A stretch of DNA of 64,000 nt. Source: Polaromonas sp. (GTDB lineage Bacteria; Pseudomonadota; Gammaproteobacteria; Burkholderiales; Burkholderiaceae_C). Made by a program: the position numbers and the translations under genes. Position 1 is the first letter of the stretch. Each line of letters opens with the position of its first letter. Below the pieces are notes generated by a model. That model ran no database searches. It was not told the origin of the DNA and saw nothing but the letters and a program-made list of their open reading frames with translations. The stretch spans positions 197 to 64,196 of the forward strand of contig JANPLX010000100.1 of NCBI GenBank assembly GCA_031422495.1, in the 5' to 3' direction. Shown here one piece after another: positions 2,726 through 53,396 of the stretch.

Positions 2726-3991
2726 TCAAGTTTGAAATGCAAAATCCACCTCAGGCGCTAAGCCGCTGATGATGCGGGCAATCGATTTTCCGGAACCACA
2801 AGCGTGGGTCCATCCCAACGTGCCGTGGCCTGTGTTGAGGTAAAAATTGCTGAGTTTGGTTTTGCCGATCAAAGGTACATTGGAAGGCGTGGCTGGTCGT
2901 AAACCGGTCCAAAATTGGGCTTGCTCTGCATCGCCAGCGCCTGGAAAGAGCTGCTCTACACGTTTCACGATCGCTTCGCAGCGAACGCGGTTTAAATATC
3001 GGTCATAGCCATTGAGTTCCGCCGTTCCCGCGATGCGTATTGTGTCGCCCGCAGGCGTGGTATAGCGCGAAAACACCAATTTGTACTCATCGTCAGTCAA
3101 AGACACTTGATAGGCCTTGGCAGCATCGACGACTGGCATGGTGACTGAGTAGCCTTTGGCCGGGTAAATGGGTAGGTTGATGCCCAACGGTGCGGCATAA
3201 ATGGGGCTCATAGAGCCCATCGCCATCACATAGGCATCAGCGCGAACGCGTTGAAACCGACCTTCGCTGTCAGTCGCTTCGACATGGTCAATCGCGCCAC
3301 CTGCTTCACGTAGCGCGGTAACTGTGTGGCTCATCAAAAACTTGACGCCAGCGTTTTGGCACAACTTCACCAGTTCACGCGCAAATAAATTAGCATCGCC
3401 AGATTCGTCTTCCGCAGTATAGGTTGCACCGGCTAACTGGGGGCGAATGTGTTGCAGGGAAGGCTCAAGGCGAACTGCTTCGTCTGCAGAGATGACTTGC
3501 CGCTCACAACCCAAAGAACGCATGAGTTCAGCGGGTTTCAATGCACCGTCAAATTCTTTTTGCGTCGTATAAAAATGCAAAATACCCTGTGTCCGCTGGG
3601 CGTAGCTCAAGCCCGTGTCGCGTCGCAGCGCTTGCAACATGTCGCGGCTATACGTGCCTAATCGCACAATTTGTTCAATGTTATGACGGGTACGCGCAGG
3701 GGTGCATTCACGCAAAAACTGCAATCCCCACAGCCATTGGCGCATGTCTGCGCGAATTCTGAAGAGTAAAGGTGCGTCCTCTTTGCCCAACCACTGCAAC
3801 ACTTTGAGCGGTGCACTCGGATTCGCCCAAGGCTCAGCATGGCTCACTGATATTTGACCGCCATTGGCAAAGCTGGTTTCCGCAGCGGGTGAAGCTTGCC
3901 GGTCTATGACGGTGACCTCATGACCCAACTGAGAAAGATAATAGGCAGAGCTGACGCCAAGCAAACCGCTACCGAGTACTAAAACACGCAT
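2726..3991 (-). CDS. dadA: FAD-dependent D-amino-acid dehydrogenase family oxidoreductase (DadA-like), downstream of a glycine riboswitch
   Basis: 421 aa. The N-terminal MRVLVLGSGLLGVSSAYYLSQLGHEVTVIDR dinucleotide fold and C-terminal FWTGLRPATPSNVPLIG...NTGHGTLGW are collinear with E. coli DadA. Confidence 0.85.
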   Translation of the reverse strand: MRVLVLGSGLLGVSSAYYLSQLGHEVTVIDRQASPAAETSFANGGQISVSHAEPWANPSAPLKVLQWLGKEDAPLLFRIRADMRQWLWGLQFLRECTPARTRHNIEQIVRLGTYSRDMLQALRRDTGLSYAQRTQGILHFYTTQKEFDGALKPAELMRSLGCERQVISADEAVRLEPSLQHIRPQLAGATYTAEDESGDANLFARELVKLCQNAGVKFLMSHTVTALREAGGAIDHVEATDSEGRFQRVRADAYVMAMGSMSPIYAAPLGINLPIYPAKGYSVTMPVVDAAKAYQVSLTDDEYKLVFSRYTTPAGDTIRIAGTAELNGYDRYLNRVRCEAIVKRVEQLFPGAGDAEQAQFWTGLRPATPSNVPLIGKTKLSNFYLNTGHGTLGWTHACGSGKSIARIISGLAPEVDFAFQT

Positions 3992-4004
3992 TTTTGACCT
4001 TTTT

Positions 4005-4068
4005 ATGGATGCAGCCGGCGATTTTATTGTCTAAGTAGCTATAAAAATAATAGCAAAAAACTATAGGA
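4005..4068 (-). repeat. Composite repeat, copy A (GCCGGC core 4013-4029, AT palindrome GCTATAAAAATAATAGC 4038-4054), in the 5' UTR of the dadA-like gene
   Basis: agccggcgattttattgtctaagtagctataaaaataatagc aligns with copy G, tagccggcgtatttattgcctacagcgctattaaaaatatag. Confidence 0.8.
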
Positions 4069-4089: not shown

Positions 4090-4338
4090 GCTGTGCCGCT
4101 CCCCCTGTCCTTGGTACCTGAGAGATTCACAGAGAGCCAGTTGGCATTCTGTTTGCTCCTTCGGTGCAAGTCATGCGTTAACACTGATCGGTGATGACGC
4201 TACTTGGCTCTCCAGACGGCTTTTAAAAAGGTGCAGTACATCACCCAAAATTGACGTAGGTCAATTTTATGGATACCTGAGCGTTCATGGGAGTTTGCGC
4301 CTTCGGTGGCATAGTTAGACTATGCTCTCTCCTGCAAA
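4090..4338 (-). promoter_or_regulatory. Tandem glycine riboswitch (two aptamers) on the minus strand, upstream of the dadA-like gene
   Basis: Aptamer 1 (fwd 4271-4338), read on the reverse complement: GCAGGAGAGAGCAUAG-UCUAA-CUAUGC-CACCGAAGGCGCAAAC...CGCUCAGGUAUCC. Aptamer 2 (fwd 4096-4220): GUCUGGAGAGCC...GCACCGAAGGAGCAAAC...AAUCUCUCAGGUACCAAGGACAG. These are the glycine-riboswitch hallmarks: GGAGAG, CACCGAAGG(G/A)GCAA and CUCUCAGG..AAGGACAG. A U-rich tract (fwd 4066-4078) follows. Confidence 0.8.
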
Positions 4339-4384
4339 ATCAATTGTAGTATAAATTTAGACGTTGAAATAATAAACAAAAGGA

Positions 4385-6597: not shown

Positions 6598-6662
6598 AAA
6601 TTAGGTAGTTATGGTTCTAGCCGGTGTATTAATTGATTAAGTAGCTATCATAAATATAGCTT
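6597..6662 (-). repeat. Composite repeat, copy B, abutting two convergent stop codons
   Basis: ggttctagccggtgtattaattgattaagtagctatcataaatatagc. Both the core and the AT palindrome are present. Confidence 0.8.
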
Positions 6663-11413: not shown

Positions 11414-12346
11414 ATGTCATCATTAGTAATCGCCGAACACGACAACGCTAGCATCAAGCCCGCCACTCTTAACACCGTTACTGCTGCATTGCAGTGTGGT
11501 GGTGATGTGCACGTGCTGGTCGCTGGCTCTAACGCAGCCGCTGCCGCTGCAGCCGCCGCACAAATCGCTGGCGTCACCAAAGTATTGCACGCAGACGACG
11601 CTGACTTAGCACATGGCTTGGCAGAAAACGTCGCTGCCCAAGTGTTAGCGGTCGCTTCCAACTACTCTCACATCTTGTTTCCCGCAACGGCCAGCGGCAA
11701 AAACGTCGCGCCTCGCGTGGCTGCCAAATTGGACGTGGGTCAAATCTCTGACATCACCAAAGTTGACAGTCCTGACACATTTGAGCGCCCGATTTATGCA
11801 GGTAATGCGATTGCAACCGTGCAAAGCTTGGATGCCATTAAAGTATTAACCGTTAGAACTACTGGATTCGACCCAGCCGGCGTAAATAATGCCTCAGTAG
11901 CTATTGAAACTGTAGCAATTCAAGCTCCAAGTGCTCAATCTACATTCATGGGCAGCGAGATTGCGAAGAACGACAGACCTGAGCTAACAGCAGCCAAAAT
12001 CATCGTCAGCGGTGGCCGTGCTTTGGGCAGTGCAGAGAAATTCAACGAAGTGATGACCCCACTGGCAGACAAACTGGGTGCAGCCATGGGCGCATCACGA
12101 GCTGCCGTTGATGCCGGTTATGCACCCAACGATTGGCAAGTTGGCCAAACCGGCAAAATTGTTGCCCCACAGTTGTATGTGGCTTGCGGCATCAGCGGCG
12201 CGATTCAGCATTTGGCGGGCATGAAAGACTCCAAAGTCATCGTCGCCATCAACAAAGACGAAGAGGCGCCGATTTTCTCGGTGGCTGACTACGGTCTGGT
12301 GGCAGATTTGTTTACCGCCGTGCCTGAGTTGGTTGCGGCTCTGTAA
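11414..12346 (+). CDS. etfA: Electron transfer flavoprotein alpha subunit
   Basis: 310 aa with C-terminal PQLYVACGISGAIQHLAGMKDSKVIVAINKDEEAPIF. Confidence 0.95.
   Translation: MSSLVIAEHDNASIKPATLNTVTAALQCGGDVHVLVAGSNAAAAAAAAAQIAGVTKVLHADDADLAHGLAENVAAQVLAVASNYSHILFPATASGKNVAPRVAAKLDVGQISDITKVDSPDTFERPIYAGNAIATVQSLDAIKVLTVRTTGFDPAGVNNASVAIETVAIQAPSAQSTFMGSEIAKNDRPELTAAKIIVSGGRALGSAEKFNEVMTPLADKLGAAMGASRAAVDAGYAPNDWQVGQTGKIVAPQLYVACGISGAIQHLAGMKDSKVIVAINKDEEAPIFSVADYGLVADLFTAVPELVAAL
11872..11922 (-). repeat. Composite repeat copy embedded in frame in the etfA inter-domain linker
   Basis: cccagccggcgtaaataatgcctcagtagctattgaaactgtagcaatt versus copy G tctagccggcgtatttattgcctacagcgctattaaaaatatagtaatt. 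This is about 70% identity by eye, with the same spacing between core and palindrome. It encodes ...PAGVNNASVAIETVAI.... Confidence 0.65.
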
Positions 12347-14190: not shown

Positions 14191-14258
14191 CCCTAAAACG
14201 CTATAAATATAATAGCTGTTTAAGCAATAAATACGCCGGCTAGAGGCGTACTTAAGTG
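14191..14258 (+). repeat. Composite repeat, copy C
   Basis: ccctaaaacGCTATAAATATAATAGCtgtttaaGCAATAAATACGCCGGCTAGAGGCGTActtaag. The core can fold as a TACGCC/GGCGTA hairpin. Confidence 0.85.
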
Positions 14259-25074: not shown

Positions 25075-26571
25075 ATGAGCCAAGTTACCAACTCCGTTCG
25101 CTTCGTCCTCGACGGCAAGATCGTCGAGGCGCAGGGCGCGCGGCGCACCACAACTGTCTTGGACTATTTGCGCGAGCAAATGCATCGCACCGGTACCAAA
25201 GAGGGCTGCGCTGAGGGGGATTGTGGGGCTTGCGTGGTTTTAGTGGGCGAGTTGAACGCGGCAGGAACAGGCGTTGACTATGTGCCGACGAACAGCTGTA
25301 TGCAATTGCTGCCCTCGTTAGACGGCAAATCCATCAAAACTGTGGAAAGTTTGAAACGTGCTGATGGTACGTTGCATCCGATCCAAGAGTCTATGGCGAC
25401 TTGCTTTGGCTCGCAATGCGGTTTTTGCACACCGGGTATTGTGATGAGTTTGGCGGGTTTGGTGCAAACCAACACCGCACCGAACCGTACAGAAATCAAC
25501 GATGCGCTGAGTGGCAATTTGTGCCGCTGCACAGGCTACAAACCCATCATCGACGCCACCTTACAAGCCTGCAAAGCAGCGCCCGAGCAGCTGAAAATCG
25601 AAGACGAAGCCGACATCGCCCTGCTCAAAAACATCCGCCGCGCCGCTGTGCCGATTTACAACTTGGATGGCGATATCGTCGTGCAGCCCGTCGTGCGCAC
25701 CCGCAAGGGCAACGAATTTGTCGCTCCTGCCACAGTGGCAGAGGTGGCTGATTACCTCGTCAAACACCCCAACGCCACGCTACTCGCAGGCAGCACAGAG
25801 ATCGGTCTGCAGGTCAACAAGCAGTTCACCCGCCCCGACAACATCGTTTACTTGGGTAATGTCACCGAACTGAAAACGATTACCTCTAAAAACGGCATGT
25901 GGCACATTGGCGCAGCCGTGTCGCTCACGCAAGTTCAAAACCTTATTGGTGATACCTATCCTGACTTTGCCGAGGTGCTACGTCGATTTGGCTCACCGCC
26001 TATCCGCTCGACCGCGACCTTAGCCGGCAATATCGCCAACGGCTCGCCGATTGGTGATTCCATGCCGTGTTTGCTCGCTTTGGGGGCAACGATGACGCTA
26101 CGCCGTGGTGACAAAACGCGCCAAGTTGCTTTGGAAAACTTCTATACCGGCATGAAGAAAAACGTGCTGCAAGCGGGCGAATTCATTGAAGCTGTACTCT
26201 TGCCGCAACCCAAAAAGGGTAGCGCCTTCCGCGCCCACAAAATCAGCAAACGCTTCGACCAGGACATCTCTGCCATCGTCTGCGCCATGAGCTACGTGCT
26301 GGTGGGTGGCAAGTTCAAAAATGTCAAAATAGCCTACAACGGTTTAGCATCGTCACCCTGTCGTGCTCCTAAATTAGAAGCAATATTAGAAGAAAATACG
26401 CCGGCTAATGTGCAAAGTGCAGCGCTTGATGCGGCAATCACTGCCAGTTTTCCTGCGCGTGACGGCTTGCGTGCCACTTGGGCGTATCGCTCCTTGGTTG
26501 CGCGCAATTTGGTGATGCAATTTGTGGAAGAGTCAATCGAATCCTCAGACCTCATGAAGGAGACTGTGTAA
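25075..26571 (+). CDS. xdhA: Xanthine dehydrogenase small subunit (2Fe-2S + FAD domains)
   Basis: 498 aa with GCAEGDCGACVV and CRCTGYKPI iron-sulfur motifs, then the FAD-binding domain. Confidence 0.9.
   Translation: MSQVTNSVRFVLDGKIVEAQGARRTTTVLDYLREQMHRTGTKEGCAEGDCGACVVLVGELNAAGTGVDYVPTNSCMQLLPSLDGKSIKTVESLKRADGTLHPIQESMATCFGSQCGFCTPGIVMSLAGLVQTNTAPNRTEINDALSGNLCRCTGYKPIIDATLQACKAAPEQLKIEDEADIALLKNIRRAAVPIYNLDGDIVVQPVVRTRKGNEFVAPATVAEVADYLVKHPNATLLAGSTEIGLQVNKQFTRPDNIVYLGNVTELKTITSKNGMWHIGAAVSLTQVQNLIGDTYPDFAEVLRRFGSPPIRSTATLAGNIANGSPIGDSMPCLLALGATMTLRRGDKTRQVALENFYTGMKKNVLQAGEFIEAVLLPQPKKGSAFRAHKISKRFDQDISAIVCAMSYVLVGGKFKNVKIAYNGLASSPCRAPKLEAILEENTPANVQSAALDAAITASFPARDGLRATWAYRSLVARNLVMQFVEESIESSDLMKETV
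26369..26410 (+). repeat. Partial composite-repeat copy in frame near the xdhA 3' end
   Basis: cctaaattagaaGCAATAttagaagaAAATACGCCGGCTAatg contains a 14-mer identical to the repeat core. It encodes ...LEAILEENTPAN.... Confidence 0.55.
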
Positions 26572-28985
26572 TGAATGCACCTACCACGCTCAAAGAACTG
26601 ATGCCAAACTTGGCCGACTCAGCGGCTCAGGGCACAGACGTAATCCACGAATCCGCCCGACTACACGTCACCGGCGAAGCGGTCTACACCGACGACATTC
26701 CCGAACTGCGTGGAACGCTCTATGCAGCGCTGATTTTGTCCCCCGTCGCCCACGGCGAGTTGATTGGTGAGGGCATTGACCGCGCCGCCATCCTAGCTGA
26801 GCATGGTGTGGTGGCGGTTTACACAGCGAGCGACATTCCGGGTGAAAACAACTGCGGCCCAATCATCCATGACGACCCGTTTCTGGCTTCTGGGAAGGTC
26901 GAATTCATCGGCCAAGCCATTGCAGTGGTCGTGGCACGGGACATGCTTTACGCCCGCGAAGTCGCTAAAAAAGCGGTGGTCAAAGTTAAAGAATTACCAG
27001 CGATTTTGACGATTGACGAAGCCATGACAGCCAAAAGCTTCATCATGCCACCCAAAGGAATCACACGTGGCACGCCGGCCGAGGCCATCAAAACCGCGTC
27101 GCACACCCTCAAAGGCGAAACCACCTGCGGCCAGCAGGAGCAGTTTTACCTAGAAGGCCAAATCACCTACGCTGTACCGCGTGAAGATGGTCAATTGACG
27201 CTGTATGTGTCGACCCAACACCCCGACGGCAACCAGCGCGAAGCAGCAGCAGCGCTGAATTTGTCCACGAATGACGTCGAAGTGATCTGCCGCCGCATGG
27301 GCGGTGCTTTTGGCGGCAAAGAGGGCAATGCCAGCATCTTCTCGCAAAGTGCAGCATTGGCAGCCTTCAAGCTGCAAAAGCCGGTAAAACTGCGTGTGAA
27401 CCGTGATGACGACATGATGATCACCGGTAAACGCCACGATTTCCGCGCCCAATACGAGGTGGGTTTCGATGACGCCGGCCATATTTTGGGTGTTGACGTG
27501 GTTTTAGCCTCGCGCTGCGGCTACAGCACCGACTTTTCTGGCCCAGTGAACGACCGCGCCGTGTTGCACATCGACAACTGCTATTACCTGCCGAATCTTT
27601 CCATCATCAGCCACCGATGCAAAACCAATATGCAAAGCGCCACAGCGTTTCGCGGCTTTGGCGGCCCGCAGGGCATGTTTGCGATTGAGACGGTCATCGA
27701 GCAGATTGCCCAAAAATTAGGAAAAGACCCGTTGGACGTGCGTAAGGCCAATTTGTACAAAGACGCTGCGGTTTCTGGCAATATTGACACGATCACCACC
27801 CAATACGGCCAGCAGATTGAAGACTGGATTGGCGATAAGGTGATGACTCAATTAGAAGAGGAATCTAACTATACCCAGCGCAGAATAAGCCTAGCTAGCT
27901 ACAACAAAACGAGCAAGTACAAGAAGAAGGGCATCGCCCTCGTACCGTTGAAATTCGGTATCAGCTTCACCGCCACCATGTTGAATCAGGGCGGCGCGCT
28001 GCTGAATATTTACATGGACGGCTCGGTCAGCGTCAACCATGGCGGCACGGAGATGGGGCAGGGCTTGAACACCAAAATGGCGCAGGTCGCGGCGGATGGT
28101 TTGGGCATTCCGGTCAGCTTGGTTCGGGTGACGGGTACGGACACGCAGAAAGTGCCGAACGCCTCGGCCACAGCGGCTTCTAGCGGTGCAGACATCAACG
28201 GTGCGGCGGTGAATAACGCTTGCGACCAGATGCGGGTTCGCTTGGCTGCAGTGGCAGGGCGGATGCTTAATTGCGCACCAGATGCTATTAAATTCATAGC
28301 TGGACAGGCAATAAATACGCCGGCTATGTCTAAAAATGACACTAAAAATAGTGTTTCATGGCAAGAAGTCGTCAAACAAGCTTGGCTAGACCGCGTCGGC
28401 CTGTCTGTGACGGGGTTTTACATGACACCAGACATCAAATACGACTTCGCCACCCTGAACGGCAAGGCGTTTTACTACTTCTGCTACGGCGCAGCGGTGA
28501 CCGAGGTCGAAATCGACACCCGCACTGGCGAGTGGTGGCTGCAAAAGGTCGATATCGTGCACGACGCCGGCAAATCCATCAACCCTGCTATTGATTTAGG
28601 TCAAATCGAAGGCGCTTACGTGCAAGGCATGGGCTGGTTGACGATGGAGGAGTGCATTTGGGACATGAAAGCCAAGACGATCGATGGCGTGGACGGACTG
28701 GGTCGCGGAAAACTCCTCACCCACGGCCCCAGCACCTACAAAATCCCGGTGGCGAGTGACATTCCGGAGCATTTCAAAGTCAGCTTTTTCGACGGCGAAA
28801 ACATCAAACCCACGCCGTTTAAGAGCAAAGCCGTCGGCGAGCCGCCGCTGATGCTGGCTTTAAGTGCGTATTTTGCGATCCGTGACGCCGTCAGCGCCTC
28901 TGCAGACCACAAAGTCCCCGTTTTCATGGACGCACCTGCTACACCAGAGCGGATTTTGATGGCTTGCGAAGCCTTGAAACGCTAA
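26571..28985 (+). CDS. xdhB: Xanthine dehydrogenase molybdopterin-binding large subunit
   Basis: Start MNAPTTLKE overlaps the xdhA stop (TAATG). Motifs GGAFGGKE, FRGFGGPQG and GEPPL are present. The ORF-track start 26478 is an upstream extension. Confidence 0.9.
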   Translation: MNAPTTLKELMPNLADSAAQGTDVIHESARLHVTGEAVYTDDIPELRGTLYAALILSPVAHGELIGEGIDRAAILAEHGVVAVYTASDIPGENNCGPIIHDDPFLASGKVEFIGQAIAVVVARDMLYAREVAKKAVVKVKELPAILTIDEAMTAKSFIMPPKGITRGTPAEAIKTASHTLKGETTCGQQEQFYLEGQITYAVPREDGQLTLYVSTQHPDGNQREAAAALNLSTNDVEVICRRMGGAFGGKEGNASIFSQSAALAAFKLQKPVKLRVNRDDDMMITGKRHDFRAQYEVGFDDAGHILGVDVVLASRCGYSTDFSGPVNDRAVLHIDNCYYLPNLSIISHRCKTNMQSATAFRGFGGPQGMFAIETVIEQIAQKLGKDPLDVRKANLYKDAAVSGNIDTITTQYGQQIEDWIGDKVMTQLEEESNYTQRRISLASYNKTSKYKKKGIALVPLKFGISFTATMLNQGGALLNIYMDGSVSVNHGGTEMGQGLNTKMAQVAADGLGIPVSLVRVTGTDTQKVPNASATAASSGADINGAAVNNACDQMRVRLAAVAGRMLNCAPDAIKFIAGQAINTPAMSKNDTKNSVSWQEVVKQAWLDRVGLSVTGFYMTPDIKYDFATLNGKAFYYFCYGAAVTEVEIDTRTGEWWLQKVDIVHDAGKSINPAIDLGQIEGAYVQGMGWLTMEECIWDMKAKTIDGVDGLGRGKLLTHGPSTYKIPVASDIPEHFKVSFFDGENIKPTPFKSKAVGEPPLMLALSAYFAIRDAVSASADHKVPVFMDAPATPERILMACEALKR
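28284..28352 (+). repeat. Full-length composite repeat in frame inside xdhB
   Basis: GCTATTAAATTCATAGCtggacaGGCAATAAATACGCCGGCTAtgtctaaaaatgacactaaaaatag. It matches intergenic copy L (53325) at 36 of 43 nt. It encodes DAIKFIAGQAINTPAMSKNDTKNS. Confidence 0.85.
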
Positions 28986-28992
28986 AAATACC

Positions 28993-29040
28993 GCTCGCCC
29001 TGAGCCTGTCGAAGGGTTTCGACAAGCTCAACCCGAACGG
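28993..29040. repeat. REP-like GC palindrome between xdhB and xdhC
   Basis: GAGCCTGTCGAA-gggt-TTCGACAAGCTC (12-bp stem, 1 mismatch). It belongs to the hairpin type that translates as ...LSLSK.FD.LRA.G... in spurious ORFs (here ORF 28939-29139 minus). Confidence 0.65.
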
Positions 29041-29064
29041 ATACTTCAAAAAATTAGGAAAAAA

Positions 29065-29964
29065 GTGGATTTCACCGCCGAATTTCAACGACTTTTGGCC
29101 AGTGAAGACGCAGTAGTTGTCTCCATAGCGTCCACCCAAGGCTCAGTCCCGCGCGAGACGGGGACGTGGATGGCGGTGTTTGCCGGCCACATCGTCGGCA
29201 CGATAGGCGGCGGTCACGTCGAATTTGAAGCCATTACCGAAGCTAGAGCGCTTTTACGCGGCAATTATTCTTCAGAGCCGTCGTTCCCGCGAAGGCGGGA
29301 ATCCACTGCGGATGACAGCACAAGTTCGTATGCAAAACGATATGTCTTAGGCCCAAGCCTAGGCCAATGCTGCGGTGGTGTGATGACTTTATGCTATCAA
29401 AAATATAGCTATTTAGGCATTAAATACGACGGCTATAGCCAAAATATGCCTAAAAATGAGGCATTTAAGTCGATTTCATACCCAAAACTCCAAAACGTCG
29501 CCCTATTCGGCGGCGGTCACGTCGGCAAAGCCATCGTCAATATCCTCAGCACCTTGCCCATGCAGGTGATGTGGATCGACAGCCGCGATGAAATCTTCCC
29601 AGACGAGCTTCCCAGTAATGTCATCTGCGAACATTCCGACCCTGTGCAAGCCGCAGTCAACGACTTAGCTGCCGGCTGCCACATCCTCATCATGAGCTTC
29701 AGCCACGCCGAAGACCTAGACATCGTCGCCGCATGCCTATTGCGCCAGCGGGAAAGGGCGGATTTGTCTTTCATAGGCTTGATTGGCAGCAAAACCAAGT
29801 GGGCAACTTTTCGGCATCGACTTGAGGACAGAGGATTCACCGCGTCGGAATTGGCGCACGTCACCTGTCCGATAGGGGTAGACGGTGTGAAAGGGAAGGA
29901 GCCTGAGGTGATTGCGGTTGGGGTGGCGGCACAATTACTAAAATTGCGAAGTTTAACCTCTTAA
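29065..29964 (+). CDS. xdhC: Xanthine dehydrogenase accessory (Moco insertion) protein XdhC
   Basis: 299 aa (GTG start). Motifs GSVPRE..GT, GGGHVE, LGQCCGG and the C-terminal Rossmann LFGGGHVGKA are present. Confidence 0.85.
   Translation: MDFTAEFQRLLASEDAVVVSIASTQGSVPRETGTWMAVFAGHIVGTIGGGHVEFEAITEARALLRGNYSSEPSFPRRRESTADDSTSSYAKRYVLGPSLGQCCGGVMTLCYQKYSYLGIKYDGYSQNMPKNEAFKSISYPKLQNVALFGGGHVGKAIVNILSTLPMQVMWIDSRDEIFPDELPSNVICEHSDPVQAAVNDLAAGCHILIMSFSHAEDLDIVAACLLRQRERADLSFIGLIGSKTKWATFRHRLEDRGFTASELAHVTCPIGVDGVKGKEPEVIAVGVAAQLLKLRSLTS
29281..29305. repeat. Short GC hairpin repeat in frame inside xdhC
   Basis: TCGTTCCCGCGAAGGCGGGAATCCA (TTCCCGC/GCGGGAA stem) encodes SFPRRRES inside a variable XdhC loop. 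Confidence 0.6.
29393..29470 (+). repeat. Full-length composite repeat in frame in the xdhC inter-domain linker
   Basis: GCTATCAAAAATATAGCtatttaGGCATTAAATACGACGGCTATAGCCaaaatatgCCTAAAAAtgaggcatttaag. It is about 80% identical by eye to copy K2 (50353). The consensus GGC TAG AGC reads GGC TAT AGC here. It encodes CYQKYSYLGIKYDGYSQNMPKNEAFKS. Confidence 0.85.
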
Positions 29965-30022
29965 GTATGTATCTAGCCGGCGTATTTATTGCCTACAGCG
30001 CTATTAAAAATATAGTAATTTG
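29961..30022 (-). repeat. Composite repeat, copy G, starting at the xdhC stop codon
   Basis: ttaagtatgtatCTAGCCGGCGTATTTATTGCCtacagcGCTATTAAAAATATAGtaatttg. Confidence 0.85.
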
Positions 30023-30034
30023 AGTTTAAAAACT

Positions 30035-30661
30035 ATGTCATCAAAAGAACTCAAACATATCGCAAAGATCACTATCGCGCATTACGACAGCAGCGCAGAA
30101 TCGTTTTGGCAAGGCACCAAAGACCACGATGTGAGCCAAAACATTGCCGCATTGTTGCAATACATAGAAGTGCCTGCGCCGTTTGAGTTGCTTGATTTCG
30201 GTTGTGGGCCAGGGCGGGATTTGAAGACTTTTAAGTCCCTAGGTCACCATCCCGTCGGGCTTGAGGGTGCGACGGCTTTGGCAGCGATGGCGCGTGAATT
30301 CAGCGGCTGCGAGGTGTGGGAGCAGAATTTTTTAGAGTTAGCGCTTCCCAAAGCATGTTTTGACGGTATTTTTGCTAACGCCGTGCTGTTTCATGTGCCA
30401 AGTGCCGCTTTACCCAACATATTGACTCAGCTTTACGAGACGCTCAAACCCGGCGGCGTGCTGTTTTGCTCCAATCCGCGAGGTGAAGGCCAAGAAGGCT
30501 GGCAAGGCGATCGTTATGGTGCTTATCACGACTTAGAAACGTGGCGCGGCTACATGACAGCAGCTGGCTTTGCTGAATTAACCCATTACTACCGACCTGC
30601 TGGGCTGCCGATTGAGCAGCAGCCTTGGTTGGCGACGGTGTGGCGCAGGCCGAGTATTTAG
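30035..30661 (+). CDS. Class I SAM-dependent methyltransferase
   Basis: Motif I LLDFGCGPGRD, with an overall small methyltransferase pattern. ATG 30035 is preferred over TTG 30020. Confidence 0.75.
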   Translation: MSSKELKHIAKITIAHYDSSAESFWQGTKDHDVSQNIAALLQYIEVPAPFELLDFGCGPGRDLKTFKSLGHHPVGLEGATALAAMAREFSGCEVWEQNFLELALPKACFDGIFANAVLFHVPSAALPNILTQLYETLKPGGVLFCSNPRGEGQEGWQGDRYGAYHDLETWRGYMTAAGFAELTHYYRPAGLPIEQQPWLATVWRRPSI

Positions 30662-31318: not shown

Positions 31319-31329
31319 AATTTGAGGTT

Positions 31330-31388
31330 GCTATATTTTTAATAGCAATACAGGCAATAAATATGCTGGCTAACGGCGTATTACAGTG
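31330..31388 (+). repeat. Composite repeat, copy H
   Basis: GCTATATTTTTAATAGCaatacaGGCAATAAATATGCTGGCTAACGGCGTATTacag. Confidence 0.8.
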
Positions 31389-31411
31389 TTTTTTGAGTGA
31401 AAGAGGGTCAA

Positions 31412-48406: not shown

Positions 48407-48450
48407 GTCATTTCTGGTACTTAACTTGCCGATATTGCTTGAAAGTATTG

Positions 48451-49185
48451 ATGTCTCAACTGCGCGCCTTCGGTAAATTGTGCTTATTCATTCCTCATCT
48501 TGTGTGGGGAATTTTCAGTATTTACGTCATATTTCCCAAGTTAAATCAAACTCAAAAAAACAAACGGATTGAGGCTTGGGCCGGTGCATTGCTTGCCAAG
48601 CTTGCTATTAAATTAGTAGTAAAAGGCAACCCACCCACCACAGGCCCGGTACTTTTGGTCTCTAACCATATTTCGTGGCTAGATATCTTGGTCATGCATG
48701 CGTCTAAACATTGCCGCTTCGTCAGCAAAGCAGACGTCAAGCATTGGCCCATTTTGGGTGCCTTGGCGACTGGTGCTGGCACCTTGTACATAGAGCGCGA
48801 GTCTAGGCGCGATGCCATGCGAGTCGTGCATCACATGTGCGAGGCCTTGCAAAATGGCGAGATTTTGGCAGTTTTTCCAGAGGGGACAACGGGCAATGGC
48901 ATTGAGATGCTCCCCTTTCACGCCAACTTGCTGCAAGCCCCCATCGTCTGCAACATACCCGTTCAGCCACTGGCGTTGCGCTATTTAGACCCCCAATCCG
49001 GCCAAACCAGCCAAGCTATGAGCTACGTGGGCGATGAAAGCCTGCTTGACTCGTTGTGGCGAACTTTGAAAGCCAAAGGCGTGATAGCCCAAGTTACCTA
49101 CGGCGAACCCCAATCGTCAAATGACCGAACCCGCAGAATGTGGTCGGATGATTTGAGGGGGGAGATTGAGCGCCTTAAAGCTTAA
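48451..49185 (+). CDS. plsC: 1-acyl-sn-glycerol-3-phosphate (lysophospholipid) acyltransferase
   Basis: NHISWLD (Hx4D) and FPEGTT motifs. The ORF track starts at TTG 48439. Confidence 0.85.
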   Translation: MSQLRAFGKLCLFIPHLVWGIFSIYVIFPKLNQTQKNKRIEAWAGALLAKLAIKLVVKGNPPTTGPVLLVSNHISWLDILVMHASKHCRFVSKADVKHWPILGALATGAGTLYIERESRRDAMRVVHHMCEALQNGEILAVFPEGTTGNGIEMLPFHANLLQAPIVCNIPVQPLALRYLDPQSGQTSQAMSYVGDESLLDSLWRTLKAKGVIAQVTYGEPQSSNDRTRRMWSDDLRGEIERLKA

Positions 49186-49202: not shown

Positions 49203-49267
49203 ATTTTTAGGTGTTTTTAGGCTCTAGTCGGCGTATTCATTGCTCATGTAGCTATTTTTTTTATAGC
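49203..49267 (-). repeat. Composite repeat, copy J
   Basis: tttttaggCTCTAGTCGGCGTATTCATTGCtcatgtaGCTATTTTTTTTATAGC. Confidence 0.8.
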
Positions 49268-49297
49268 ATTTTGTGTGTAAAATGTTCGGGTGAGACA

Positions 49298-50194: not shown

Positions 50195-50337
50195 CAGCAA
50201 TAGGTAGTGTTTTTACTTGCCGCATAAGTTAAACGCGGGTTGTCACGGGTAAGCCATTTTTAGACAAATACCATAGCACTAAAGCCAACAAACACGCCGG
50301 CTAGAGTGTAATTTAGAGGGTCAAAAACCCTAAAACT
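50195..50337 (+). repeat. Degenerate composite-repeat copies K0 and K1
   Basis: K0: ctatagcttagagcagcaataggtag...cgcataagttaa. K1: aaagCCAACAAACACGCCGGCTAGAGtgtaATTTAGAGGGtcaaaaaCCCTAAAAc. Confidence 0.6.
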
Positions 50338-50352
50338 GGACTTCGCCATTTT

Positions 50353-50422
50353 GCTATCAAATAAATAGCGAATTAGGCAATAAATACGCCGGCTAGAGCC
50401 ATATTTAGTCCCTAAAAAGACG
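50353..50422 (+). repeat. Composite repeat, copy K2, ending at the ABC ATPase stop codon
   Basis: GCTATCAAATAAATAGCgaattaGGCAATAAATACGCCGGCTAGAGCCatatttagtCCCTAAAAAgacg. Confidence 0.85.
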
Positions 50423-51643: not shown

Positions 51644-53323
51644 ATGCTGACACAAAAATCCCTATCAAACCCCGACTTTAGCCTGACCAAACGCACCAAG
51701 AGGGGACGTTTTGCCCTCCGTGTCTTGCTGTGCGCGTTCGCCTTGGTGCTGTTGTTGCCTATTTTGGCGGTCATCGCGTCGGTGCTGCAGTGGAATGGGG
51801 AATCCGCGCAAATCCTGCGGGAAATGAGCCAAACCGTGCTGCCAGATTACGCCATAACCTCGCTGATGTTGTGCATCTTGGTGGCGATAGGCGTGGCGGT
51901 GGTTGGCATGGCGACGGCAATTGCAGTCACCTTGTTTGAGTTCGCCGGCCGCAAAACGTTTGAGTGGGCGCTGTTATTGCCCATCGCCATGCCCGCCTAC
52001 GTGGTGGCGTATGCCTATACCGACTTTTTGCAGTTCAGTGGCCCAGCGCAGGGCTGGATTCGTGGTGCTTTTGGCTTAGAAGGGCGCGTGTTACCAGAAA
52101 TTCGCAGCGTTTGGGGGGCGGCCTGGGTGTTCACGTTTTGCCTTTATCCCTATGTGTATTTGCTGGCTCGCACCGCCTTGGCAGAGCGCGCCACGCATTT
52201 GATGGACGCTGCTCGTCTGTTGGGCGCGCCGCTGCGCCGCCGCATCAAAGAAATCGCTTTGCCATTGGCGCGCCCCGCAGTGGCAGCTGGCATCGCCTTG
52301 GCACTGATGGAAACATTGGCAGATTTTGGCGTCTCCAGCTACTTTGGTATCCAAACTTTCACAGCAGGTATTTATAAAGCTTGGTTGGTGTTAGACAGCC
52401 GCATCGCAGCCGCACAACTTGCCACGCTGTTGCTAATTACGGTAGTGTTGCTCTTAAAAATAGAGCGAAAAGCGCAAAAGAAGATGCGATTTTCAGCCGC
52501 CAAAGGTGCTAACCAAGCCCATAAATCCCAAACAGCGGAAAAATTGCAAGGCAAACAGCTCGCCGTCGCATGGCTGGTCTGCATCACGCCGATTTTGATG
52601 GGTTTTGTGTTGCCGCTGCTGTTCATCTTGCGTCCGTTTTTAGCAGCGTTGCGGGCTAACAATGTTCTGCTGCCGTGGGCACAATTTGGTCAATGGGCGG
52701 CGAACAGCCTGTTTTTGGGCGTAGTTAGTGCCGTTTTGGCGGTGGCATTCGCATTAGTCATCGCCTTTGCTATGCGCACCCGGCCTGATAGGTTGACGCA
52801 CTTTGTGGGTAACTTGGCTGGGCTAGGGTATGCCATTCCCGGCGCAGTGATTGTCGTTGGTTTGCTTATCCCAGTCGGTTGGATACAGTCAAAATGGCCT
52901 CAAGCCGGCGTAGGATATTGGGTAACTGCTACAGTTTTAGGAGTAATTTGGGCTTACGTTGTACGCTTTAGCGGCGTGGCGTTGCAATCGGTGCAAAGCG
53001 GTTACGCGAAGATTCCAAGCAGTTTTGACGATTCTGCCCGCATGCTGGGCACGAACGGCTTGAACTTGCTGCGCCGCGTGCATTTGCCCTTGCTCAAGCG
53101 CTCCACAGCGGCGGCGGCATTGTTGGTATTTGTCGATGTGATGAAAGAGCTACCCGCCACGCTGGTGCTGCGTCCTTTCAACATGGACACCTTAGCTGTC
53201 GTCACCTACCAGCTAGCTCGGGATGAACGCTTGGGCGAGGCAGCGTTGCCCGCTTTGGCGTTGGTTTTGGTGGGATTATTGCCGGTTTTGTTACTTAGCC
53301 GAACATTGCGTTCAGCTAAATAA
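51644..53323 (+). CDS. Iron(III)-type ABC transporter permease (two fused permease domains, FbpB-like)
   Basis: 559 aa, about 12 TM segments, with two EAA-like loops (AARLLGAPLRRRIKEIALPLARP and SARMLGTNGLNLLRRVHLPLLKRS). Confidence 0.8.
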   Translation: MLTQKSLSNPDFSLTKRTKRGRFALRVLLCAFALVLLLPILAVIASVLQWNGESAQILREMSQTVLPDYAITSLMLCILVAIGVAVVGMATAIAVTLFEFAGRKTFEWALLLPIAMPAYVVAYAYTDFLQFSGPAQGWIRGAFGLEGRVLPEIRSVWGAAWVFTFCLYPYVYLLARTALAERATHLMDAARLLGAPLRRRIKEIALPLARPAVAAGIALALMETLADFGVSSYFGIQTFTAGIYKAWLVLDSRIAAAQLATLLLITVVLLLKIERKAQKKMRFSAAKGANQAHKSQTAEKLQGKQLAVAWLVCITPILMGFVLPLLFILRPFLAALRANNVLLPWAQFGQWAANSLFLGVVSAVLAVAFALVIAFAMRTRPDRLTHFVGNLAGLGYAIPGAVIVVGLLIPVGWIQSKWPQAGVGYWVTATVLGVIWAYVVRFSGVALQSVQSGYAKIPSSFDDSARMLGTNGLNLLRRVHLPLLKRSTAAAALLVFVDVMKELPATLVLRPFNMDTLAVVTYQLARDERLGEAALPALALVLVGLLPVLLLSRTLRSAK

Positions 53324-53324
53324 T

Positions 53325-53396
53325 GCTATATATTTAATAGCTGGATAGGCAATAAATACGCCGAATAGCGATATTTGCCTCTAATTTGGTCCCTCG
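53325..53396 (+). repeat. Composite repeat, copy L, starting 2 nt after the permease stop
   Basis: GCTATATATTTAATAGCtggataGGCAATAAATACGCCGAATAGCGatatttgcctctaatttggtCCCTcgac. Confidence 0.85.

Follow-up and report, generated by a model that had tools for sequence, protein, structure and literature searches.

The 64,000-nt stretch of Polaromonas sp. DNA analyzed in the present study (hereafter, the window) contains a complete xanthine dehydrogenase operon, xdhABC, and an AT-rich interspersed repeat of approximately 70 nt. Full-length copies of this repeat were found in frame within xdhB and xdhC, in agreement with an earlier reading of the window made without database searches (the sequence-only reading), and the stop codon of each reading frame had been removed. 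We consider it probable that AT-rich repeat copies of the genome became part of xdhB and xdhC, and that they are now tolerated as translated segments of working proteins. The best reading of these copies appears, by analogy, to be a phenomenon similar to that of the Rickettsia palindromic elements (RPE) or of intragenic repetitive extragenic palindromes (REP).

In-frame copies in xdhB and xdhC

Repeat membership was assessed using a profile trained only on the nine truly intergenic copies in the window. The copies in xdhB and xdhC were never seen by this profile, and the leave-one-out scores of the nine intergenic copies (17.7–52.5 bits) served as the yardstick for coding copies. An earlier profile (the first profile) also contained two coding copies, those in etfA and in a PlsC-like open reading frame (ORF).

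The copy in xdhB (28284–28352, plus strand) matched the intergenic-only profile at 28282–28326 with 42.0 bits (E=4e-12) and is read as AIKFIAGQAINTPAMSKNDTKNS, residues 572–594. It shares 35 of 43 nt with each of the copies at 14200 and 50353, close to the 36 of 43 reported in the sequence-only reading, and 34 of 39 nt with the copy at 53325. The copy in xdhC (29393–29470, plus strand) matched at 29390–29445 with 34.8 bits (E=8e-10) and is read as (C)YQKYSYLGIKYDGYSQNMPKNEAFKS, residues 110–136; 54 of 66 nt are identical to the copy at 50353, near the previous estimate of about 80%. Both copies are full-length, as had been proposed, and since their scores fall within the leave-one-out range, they are ordinary members of the family.

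The xdhB and xdhC copies differ by one base in reading frame, which coordinate arithmetic confirmed: the distance from the gene start is 1713 nt in xdhB (28284-26571; 0 mod 3) and 328 nt in xdhC (29393-29065; 1 mod 3). In the consensus of 81 metagenome copies, there is a single stop in each of these two frames. That of the xdhB frame, a TAG before GCAAT, is CAG in xdhB. That of the xdhC frame, in GGC TAG AG, reads TAT, TAC, or TGC in the xdhC of seven taxa; the change from GGC-TAG-AGC to GGC-TAT-AGC in the window, previously described as the loss of the only stop of that frame, was correctly identified. The foreign character of the two segments is also backed by their base composition. Their GC content is 0.33–0.37, against approximately 0.55–0.6 around them, and AT-ending codons persist in the segments even where the GC content at third codon positions (GC3) of the orthologue is 0.84–0.91.

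The sequence-only reading had placed all coding copies in regions that vary between homologues. This holds for XdhB, where the copy lies in a length-variable hairpin and loop, presumably at the surface, and for the length-variable inter-domain stretch of XdhC, where the copy sits between the XdhC_CoxI and XdhC_C domains. It does not hold for a third stretch, in xdhA (26369–26410, plus strand), which had been described as a partial copy in the C-terminal tail; this stretch falls inside the CO_deh_flav_C domain (residues 387–486). We rejected it as a copy and regard it as native coding sequence. It had an E-value of 0.05 with the first profile, was unreported at E<10 with the intergenic-only profile, and aligned without gaps with approximately 40 orthologues, in which LEAVLEGKTPAxV is conserved out to Limnohabitans. 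The native orthologue DNA GGCAAAACACCGGCT (KTPA) differs from GAAAATACGCCGGCT (NTPA) of the window by 2–3 nt, and the repeat-like pieces GCAATA and AAATACGCCGGCTA are non-contiguous, being 9 nt apart. This decision was based on the profile score and the native orthologue DNA; the absence of an indel is insufficient alone as a test of non-membership because the etfA copy described below also shows almost no length change. The comparison of orthologues indicates that the similarity in xdhA is a chance resemblance.

The host genes

The three genes of the operon are intact, and all of the expected Pfam domains are present. xdhA (25075–26571, plus strand) encodes the Fe-S/FAD subunit with Fer2, Fer2_2, FAD_binding_5, and CO_deh_flav_C domains. 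xdhB (26571–28985, plus strand) encodes the molybdopterin subunit, and its ATG overlaps the xdhA stop codon (TAATG). xdhC (29065–29964, plus strand) encodes the chaperone for molybdenum cofactor insertion; it has a GTG start codon preceded by an AGGA ribosome-binding site, and its product contains XdhC_CoxI at residues 12–66 and XdhC_C at residues 146–291. Compared with the B chain of Rhodobacter capsulatus xanthine dehydrogenase (1JRO_B), XdhB scored 728 bits (E=1e-217).

Relatives were represented by 80 genome loci of Comamonadaceae. Window XdhB is 99% identical to that of L001, a Polaromonas sp. metagenome-assembled genome (MAG), and 75–93% identical to those of the 79 other loci. Pairwise ratios of nonsynonymous to synonymous substitutions (dN/dS) against relatives were 0.04–0.10 for xdhA, 0.05–0.085 for xdhB, and 0.13–0.22 for xdhC, indicating strong purifying selection, and the xdh ORFs were open in every MAG and metagenome relative examined. 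The sequence-only reading had named pseudogene status of the xdh genes as a result that would speak against it. Because dN/dS was 0.04–0.22 throughout and the ORFs were intact, xdhA, xdhB, and xdhC appear to be functional genes and not pseudogenes.

History of the xdhB and xdhC copies

The segment of XdhB between RMLxC and W..KQAWLDRV occurs in three forms: a bare form of 53 residues (xVVFxGGxxxG...) in Limnohabitans, Rubrivivax, and others; a form of 60–61 residues with the AT-rich repeat (AIKFIAGQAINTPAxGxxDxKNSV) in Polaromonas, Variovorax, and others; and a longer form of 68–80 residues with a GC-rich repeat in loci L006, L075, L009, and L016. At this site, 1JRO_B of R. capsulatus carries CAARDVIFDAGQVQASGKSW, with a native hairpin of the type xVxFxAGQ. 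The 53-residue bare form of Limnohabitans and Rubrivivax, together with the native hairpin in 1JRO_B, suggests that the bare form is the ancestral state. Relative to this form, the 72-nt copy in xdhB corresponds to a net gain of only 24 nt (8 residues) and overlays the ancestral β-hairpin, while the net gain in XdhC is 5–12 residues for a 26-residue element. Plain insertion, as pictured in the sequence-only reading, does not fit these lengths.

A structural model of XdhB was obtained with AlphaFold2 (AF2) from an alignment of 47 homologues, each with at least 79% identity. Use of the model was restricted to the locally confident stretch 551–600 (predicted local distance difference test [pLDDT] score of approximately 89 at 551–580). 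In this stretch, IKFI (573–576) and QAIN (579–582) form a β-hairpin, which is followed by a less confident loop (583–593).

The repeat-derived stretch in xdhB was detected with the same frame and length in Variovorax (L012, L013, L017–L019), Hydrogenophaga (L021, L022), Tibeticola (L031), and others, and its DNA similarity among orthologue loci falls off with evolutionary distance. Of the 120 nearest XdhB clusters, the AT-rich repeat allele was found in at least 97, the GC-rich one in 6–7, and the bare form in 5. Since each GC-rich-repeat allele nested beside AT-rich-repeat sisters on a neighbor-joining tree, the tree indicates that the cassette at this site was exchanged through recombination. 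The xdhB copy appears to be ancient and not a recent arrival in this genome; within the Comamonadaceae, it was either passed down by descent or swapped as a cassette. The sequence-only reading had stated that the same nucleotide stretch in orthologues from genomes lacking the intergenic repeat would count against its proposal. Formally, such orthologues were found for xdhB, namely, the Variovorax, Hydrogenophaga, and Tibeticola loci, which share the stretch and showed no intergenic copies in the 9–14 kb covered for each. These orthologues alter the history of the copy, not its homology to the repeat. The XdhB alleles of L002, P0020, P0026, P0029, P0032, P0034, and P0037 have 4–11 extra residues past the repeat stretch (e.g., GEIGIKNSLNDDKTSVKTSVS), which resemble a duplicated 3′ portion of the element.

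The xdhC copy was confined in the alignment to the closest clade (the window, L001, L002, L003, L006, L010, and L075), and this restricted distribution suggests that it is younger than the xdhB copy. The proportion of nonsynonymous differences (pN) in the xdhC segment was approximately 0.22–0.30 and that of synonymous differences (pS) approximately 0.3, versus 0.1 and 0.5, respectively, in the rest of the gene. These values suggest that, as far as the protein is concerned, the copy evolves almost neutrally, and that its synonymous sites change unusually little. In a sister clade of more distant Polaromonas and Variovorax (L008, L011, L013, L015–L019), a repeat-like stretch is present at a slightly shifted position in the XdhC linker and is read in the xdhB-type frame; that of L019, AIKLVALRAYSMPANGLK, is identical to the xdhB copy of L019 at 41 of 57 nt. 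The XdhC linker has probably been hit at least twice because the repeat stretch of the sister clade differs and lies at another position and in another frame.

The repeat family in the window and in metagenomes

The repeat occurs on both strands, with at least nine intergenic copies in the 64-kb window. Its core, AATAAATACGCCGGCTAG, had 11 matches in the window at three or fewer mismatches, against 0.02 expected by chance. The consensus of the 81 metagenome copies, approximately 70 nt long, is aaattTGCTATAtATTTAATAGCt.cTtAGGCAATAAATACGCCGGCTAgAGgCatATTT..c..atAAatT, with an estimated GC content of approximately 35–40%. It consists of hairpin 1 (GCTAT, a 7-nt loop, and ATAGC), the conserved core GGCAATAAATACGCCGGCTA, hairpin 2, in which AAATAcGCC pairs with GGCaTATTT upon folding, and a short tail. 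The 13 profile matches in 64 kb correspond to approximately one copy per 5 kb. Intergenic copies lie a few bases from gene ends, and their orientation to the flanking genes is unbiased.

Copies on the plus strand are located at 14197–14258 (the reference copy), at 31327–31389, in tandem at 50257–50320 and 50349–50410, and at 53321–53381, the last starting at the stop codon of the upstream ORF. On the minus strand, copies between convergent genes are at 6603–6662 and 49216–49269, and a further copy (3996–4057) separates a tandem glycine riboswitch from the start codon of the gene downstream. Immediately after the xdhC stop and before the methyltransferase ATG at 30037, a copy on the minus strand (29957–30019) scored 56.7 bits, as the sequence-only reading had led us to expect; it is kept at the same position in L001, L002, L006, and L010 and is an ordinary intergenic family member.

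A tag, GTAGCTAT, was present in 4 of 11 window copies, and the 81-copy consensus has no majority base there; a GTAG/CGTC tag next to the stem, as in REP, is not a consensus feature of these 81 copies. No long terminal inverted repeats were evident in the consensus, which has only AT-rich AAATT-like ends on both sides. Among the loci of relatives, no clean pair of filled and empty sites was found. A search of the whole window against Rfam in gathering mode returned only two glycine riboswitch aptamers, and a search with the tandem copies in E-value mode returned nothing, i.e., the repeat had no Rfam match. In a scan of 28000–30200, promoter and terminator counts were at the level of shuffled sequences.

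The metagenome sample was collected by a scan for an exact 17-mer, which yielded 120 contigs (loci L081–L200); at a threshold of at least 25 bits, these contained 123 copies, a census that is biased since it was seeded by an exact 17-mer. Ten metagenome contigs of 61–66% GC carried repeat copies. Eighteen of the 123 copies lay inside long ORFs. Twelve of these were in the xdhB frame (..IAxQAINTPATGQ..), with hosts assigned by eye including PepN, MoaC, MetH, SDR, AroA-Cmk, GlcE-like, YgiQ-like, and DUF3025, and six were in the opposite orientation (..AGVFI..AI..), with hosts by eye including DapF, HemD, XerC/D-like, ComEC, and DUF2520; the xdhC frame was used by none of the 18. Pfam identified known families in 9 of the 10 host ORFs tested, including MoaC, DapF, HemD, and AroA-Cmk (PepN, MetH, YgiQ-like, and ComEC were not among the ten). 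In many of these genes, the stop of the xdhB frame was replaced by differing single-base changes (Q, K, L, and G). The copy in a metagenome MoaC, IAIDFIAPQAINTPATGQNDTKNIV, adds 8–12 residues for an element of 25, and its IAIDF overlays the native VDVDF strand.

A further coding copy in the window lies in etfA (11414–12346) in the opposite orientation (11873–11919, minus strand). It is read as FDPAGVNNASVAIETVA, scored 21.4 bits out of sample (E=1e-5), and occupies the linker that joins the ETF domain to the ETF_alpha domain, with a length difference of one residue from Paracoccus ETF (1EFP_A). A weaker repeat-like stretch (48574–48623; 18.5 bits) was noted in the PlsC-like acyltransferase ORF (48439–49185). 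The peptide of this stretch, WAGALLAKLAIKLVV, presumably also fits the native pattern of the PlsC family, as in Escherichia coli PlsC, and the stretch may be a chance resemblance or a very old copy.

Origin of the coding copies

We propose that repeat DNA entered xdhB and xdhC at structurally permissive places and that point mutations removed the one in-frame stop of the element (TAG to CAG in xdhB and TAG to TAT in xdhC). The coding copies may have been kept because these sites are permissive and because the single in-frame stop was mutated away. Neighboring native codons would have been lost or overwritten, leaving the observed net gain of only 5–12 residues. In XdhB, the hairpin-1 part (AIKFIAGQAIN) would replace the ancestral β-hairpin, and the remainder would extend the following loop, as suggested by the local model and the alignment. 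In XdhC, the copy would be an almost neutral piece of the inter-domain linker. The copies may be regarded as passenger peptides, for which we infer no new catalytic or regulatory function.

The direction from repeat to gene is supported by the presence of one consensus stop per frame and the varied replacements of this stop in coding copies. The XdhB site appears to be permissive, since the GC-rich repeat is found there instead in L006, L075, L009, and L016. The XdhC linker also appears to be permissive, with the second repeat-derived stretch in Variovorax and distant Polaromonas, and a third type that is read as SFPRRREST.

Several results weigh against this origin. The net gain is always below the size of the element (8 of 24 residues in xdhB, 5–12 of 26 in xdhC, 1 in etfA, and 8–12 of 25 in MoaC), contrary to what simple insertion would predict. 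Conservation at synonymous sites is stronger in the segments than outside them, and the xdhB and xdhC copies within one Variovorax genome share species-specific bases (GGCGAATGGC in L013, GGCTACTGGC in L017, and GGCTAATGGC in L019); both observations point to gene conversion or a DNA-level constraint beyond one insertion. Among the 80 genome loci, only the closest Polaromonas clade showed intergenic AT-rich copies, and, save two marginal matches, they were absent in an estimated 190 kb or so of loci from lineages sharing the xdhB stretch. With so few intergenic copies outside the close clade, an old origin requires loss of the family, exchange of the cassette, or thin sampling. In addition, the structural model of XdhB is poor overall (pLDDT 53.5; predicted template modeling score 0.50). 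For the persistence of the xdhB stretch near the present consensus, gene conversion is our preferred answer; for the small net gain, the deletion of neighboring native codons or the replacement of a patch is preferred.

The same results may be read differently, namely, that ectopic gene conversion or template switching made the coding copies by overwriting a target patch, without a transposition-like insertion, and still homogenizes them (concerted evolution). Although we doubt that this was the origin of the copies, it is the alternative that survives best. It would explain net gains far under the element length in all four cases, the shared Variovorax bases, the closeness of the window xdhB copy to the present consensus despite a stretch common to several genera, and the combination of lower pS and higher pN in the xdhC segment than in the rest of the gene. 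In the four Variovorax loci, moreover, the true pairing of xdhB and xdhC copies was the best of 24 permutations, and three clades combined gave 223 of 17280. However, no pairing signal was detected in the window's own clade (53 of 120 permutations), and for a 70-nt patch to become established in unrelated DNA in the first place, a step resembling insertion is still required. The samples are small, and the evidence for concerted evolution of the coding copies is suggestive only.

We judged it unlikely that the motif is kept in genes for a function in DNA or RNA, such as a site for a nucleoid or recombination protein, an RNA hairpin acting on mRNA stability or on translation, or a sequence resembling an uptake signal, with the peptide as a by-product. 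Such a function is compatible with the strongly conserved 18–20-nt core, the stability of copies at orthologous positions, the low pS in the xdhC segment, and a conservation of AT-ending synonymous codons that exceeds the background in the xdhB segment (5 of 6 versus 0.22 in L040, and 7 of 8 versus 0.40 in L019). However, the lack of orientation bias, the Rfam result, and the background-level promoter and terminator scans all argue against it. Furthermore, distant orthologues retain the peptide pattern although hairpin 1 has decayed freely in them, and gene conversion accounts for the same data. Uptake sequences (the DNA uptake sequence of Neisseria and the uptake signal sequence of Pasteurellaceae) have cores of 9–12 nt, occur approximately once per kb, and arise by point mutation and uptake bias. 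The present repeat resembles them in being a conserved motif that is tolerated in given frames where proteins are weakly constrained; uptake sequences bring little or no change in length. It differs in its length of approximately 70 nt, which is far longer than known uptake sequences, its two hairpins, its density of approximately one per 5 kb, and the net residues added. An origin of the uptake-sequence type by point mutation was rejected on the length of the element and the net insertions.

The reverse direction, in which the intergenic family of the Polaromonas clade derives from the older and taxonomically wider xdhB stretch, is very improbable. It would agree with the presence of the stretch in several genera, the restriction of intergenic copies to the closest clade among the 80 genome loci, and the similarity of the translated hairpin to the native xVxFxAGQ motif. 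However, in base composition the stretch is foreign to xdhB, and it exceeds the ancestral form by 8 residues; the family consensus has TAG where xdhB has CAG; copies are found in contigs of 61–66% GC and in many unrelated genes; and flanking xdhB sequence was not seen in the intergenic copies. Chance similarity of AT-rich coding DNA holds for xdhA and may hold for the PlsC-like ORF; for xdhB and xdhC, its probability is negligible, and it is refuted by the E-values (4e-12 and 8e-10) from a profile blind to both copies, with 11 core matches against 0.02 expected.

Beyond the probable incorporation of repeat copies into xdhB and xdhC, we tentatively speculate, with less than even confidence, that the repeat is a "translatable" selfish module. 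Readable in three of six frames, it would repeatedly colonize β-hairpins and linkers across Comamonadaceae enzymes (XdhB, XdhC, EtfA, MoaC, MetH, PepN, AroA, DapF, HemD, and others), supply a strand-turn-strand and loop (AIxFIAxQAINTPATGQNDTKN) in the commonest frame, and be homogenized by gene conversion with the genomic family. If so, non-coding repeat sequence would be passing continually into the proteins of free-living bacteria.

Comparison with known elements

The sequence-only reading compared the coding copies with RPE, and the comparison is apt. In the accounts of RPE by Ogata et al. (2000, 2002), as summarized in PMC10969869, palindromic repeats are found in frame inside genes. According to that summary, the two systems share a short palindromic repeat that is present both between genes and in frame in unrelated housekeeping genes, intact host genes, a recurrent element-encoded peptide (here, ..AIxFIAxQAINTPATGQNDTKN..), and structurally tolerant placement. 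In the window, hairpins 1 and 2 provide the palindromic (stem-loop) DNA, and the nine intergenic copies together with those in xdhB, xdhC, and etfA provide the double location. Again with respect to the summarized accounts, the present host is a free-living betaproteobacterium, whereas that of RPE is an obligate intracellular alphaproteobacterium; the element is approximately 70 nt long versus approximately 100–150 nt, and unrelated in sequence; it is read in at least three frames and in both orientations, whereas RPE use one conserved frame; and its net gain is below the element size. PMC10969869 also lists in-frame repeats documented for Rickettsia, enterobacterial repetitive intergenic consensus (ERIC) sequences, BOX, and miniature inverted-repeat transposable elements (MITE) of Anabaena. 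Intragenic ERIC sequences and further small mobile sequences of enterobacteria (Delihas 2007, cited as reference 48 in PMC10969869) are similarly small repeats present as in-frame fusions within genes; they belong to other taxa and have other sequences, and the MITE-typical terminal inverted repeats of those elements are not evident here.

Intragenic REP with GTAG or CGTC tags have been cataloged in many free-living bacteria (Di Nocera et al. 2013; PMC3733652). They are likewise small stem-loops that are mostly downstream of genes, with some overlapping stop codons, and a minority lie fully inside known genes, where they encode 20–30 residues and are read as neutral insertions in loops or linkers. 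In contrast to REP, a GTAG tag is found in only some of the present copies and not in the consensus, and the most conserved part is the non-palindromic core, not the stem; no RAYT transposase was seen, although no search aimed at one was made. Hot et al. (2011; PMC3110155) described a GC-rich Beta-proteobacterial repeat element (BRE) with its peak abundance in Polaromonas JS666 and with some copies entirely within coding sequences. Both BRE and the present repeat are interspersed betaproteobacterial repeats with wholly intragenic copies, and BRE reaches its top abundance in a Polaromonas genome. BRE is 75–91 bp long with approximately 69% GC, against approximately 70 nt and 35–40% GC for the AT-rich repeat, and the latter is therefore a different family. 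The statement in the sequence-only reading that no such description was known for a betaproteobacterial repeat was, therefore, too strong in view of Hot et al. (2011) and also of Di Nocera et al. (2013). In the literature searched, we found no description of this AT-rich repeat family.

Rickettsia is the best-known source of in-frame selfish repeats, which have often been tied to the weak selection acting on intracellular bacteria; here, they occur in abundant free-living freshwater and glacier Betaproteobacteria. With a copy kept across genera, alternative cassettes in one enzyme loop, and hints of concerted evolution, the operon may be a useful system for studying the passage of repeats into proteins. 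The peptides ..AINTPATGQ.., RPELVEGL, and SFPRRRES may serve as markers of repeat-derived segments, which can mislead alignments, domain boundaries, and structural models.

Other observations

Two GC-rich palindromic sequences accompany the AT-rich repeat in the operon. The xdhB-xdhC spacer contains a different repeat (28991–29040, plus strand) that folds at -23.8 kcal/mol (z = -3.8). This type is translated (RPELVEGL..SVRTE) in the xdhB of L006, L075, L009, and L016, at the site of the AT-rich repeat; one XdhB loop thus appears to have been used by two unrelated repeats, and the alleles look recombined among lineages. Its motif was also found in other loci. This GC-rich repeat, in the spacer and in the xdhB of L006 and the others, may be BRE. 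In xdhC, a GC-rich palindrome, TTCCCGCGAAGGCGGGAA (29275–29310, plus strand), is in frame and is read as SFPRRREST. This peptide is present in the alignment in the window, L001, L002, and L003, and the exact DNA motif occurs again in the xdhC of L002 and L003 and in four unrelated metagenome loci. We take this palindrome to resemble the dRS3 element of Neisseria.

In the copy after the xdhC stop, the complementary strand (29989–30016, plus strand) contains a sigma-70-like pair, TTGCCT and TATAGT, separated by 16 nt and facing the methyltransferase gene (ATG at 30037). We gave this pair no weight because the scan of 28000–30200 was at background. The tandem glycine riboswitch (4095–4344, minus strand) comprises two aptamers, and the repeat copy at 3996–4057 separates it from its expected target, the gene at 2726–3991.

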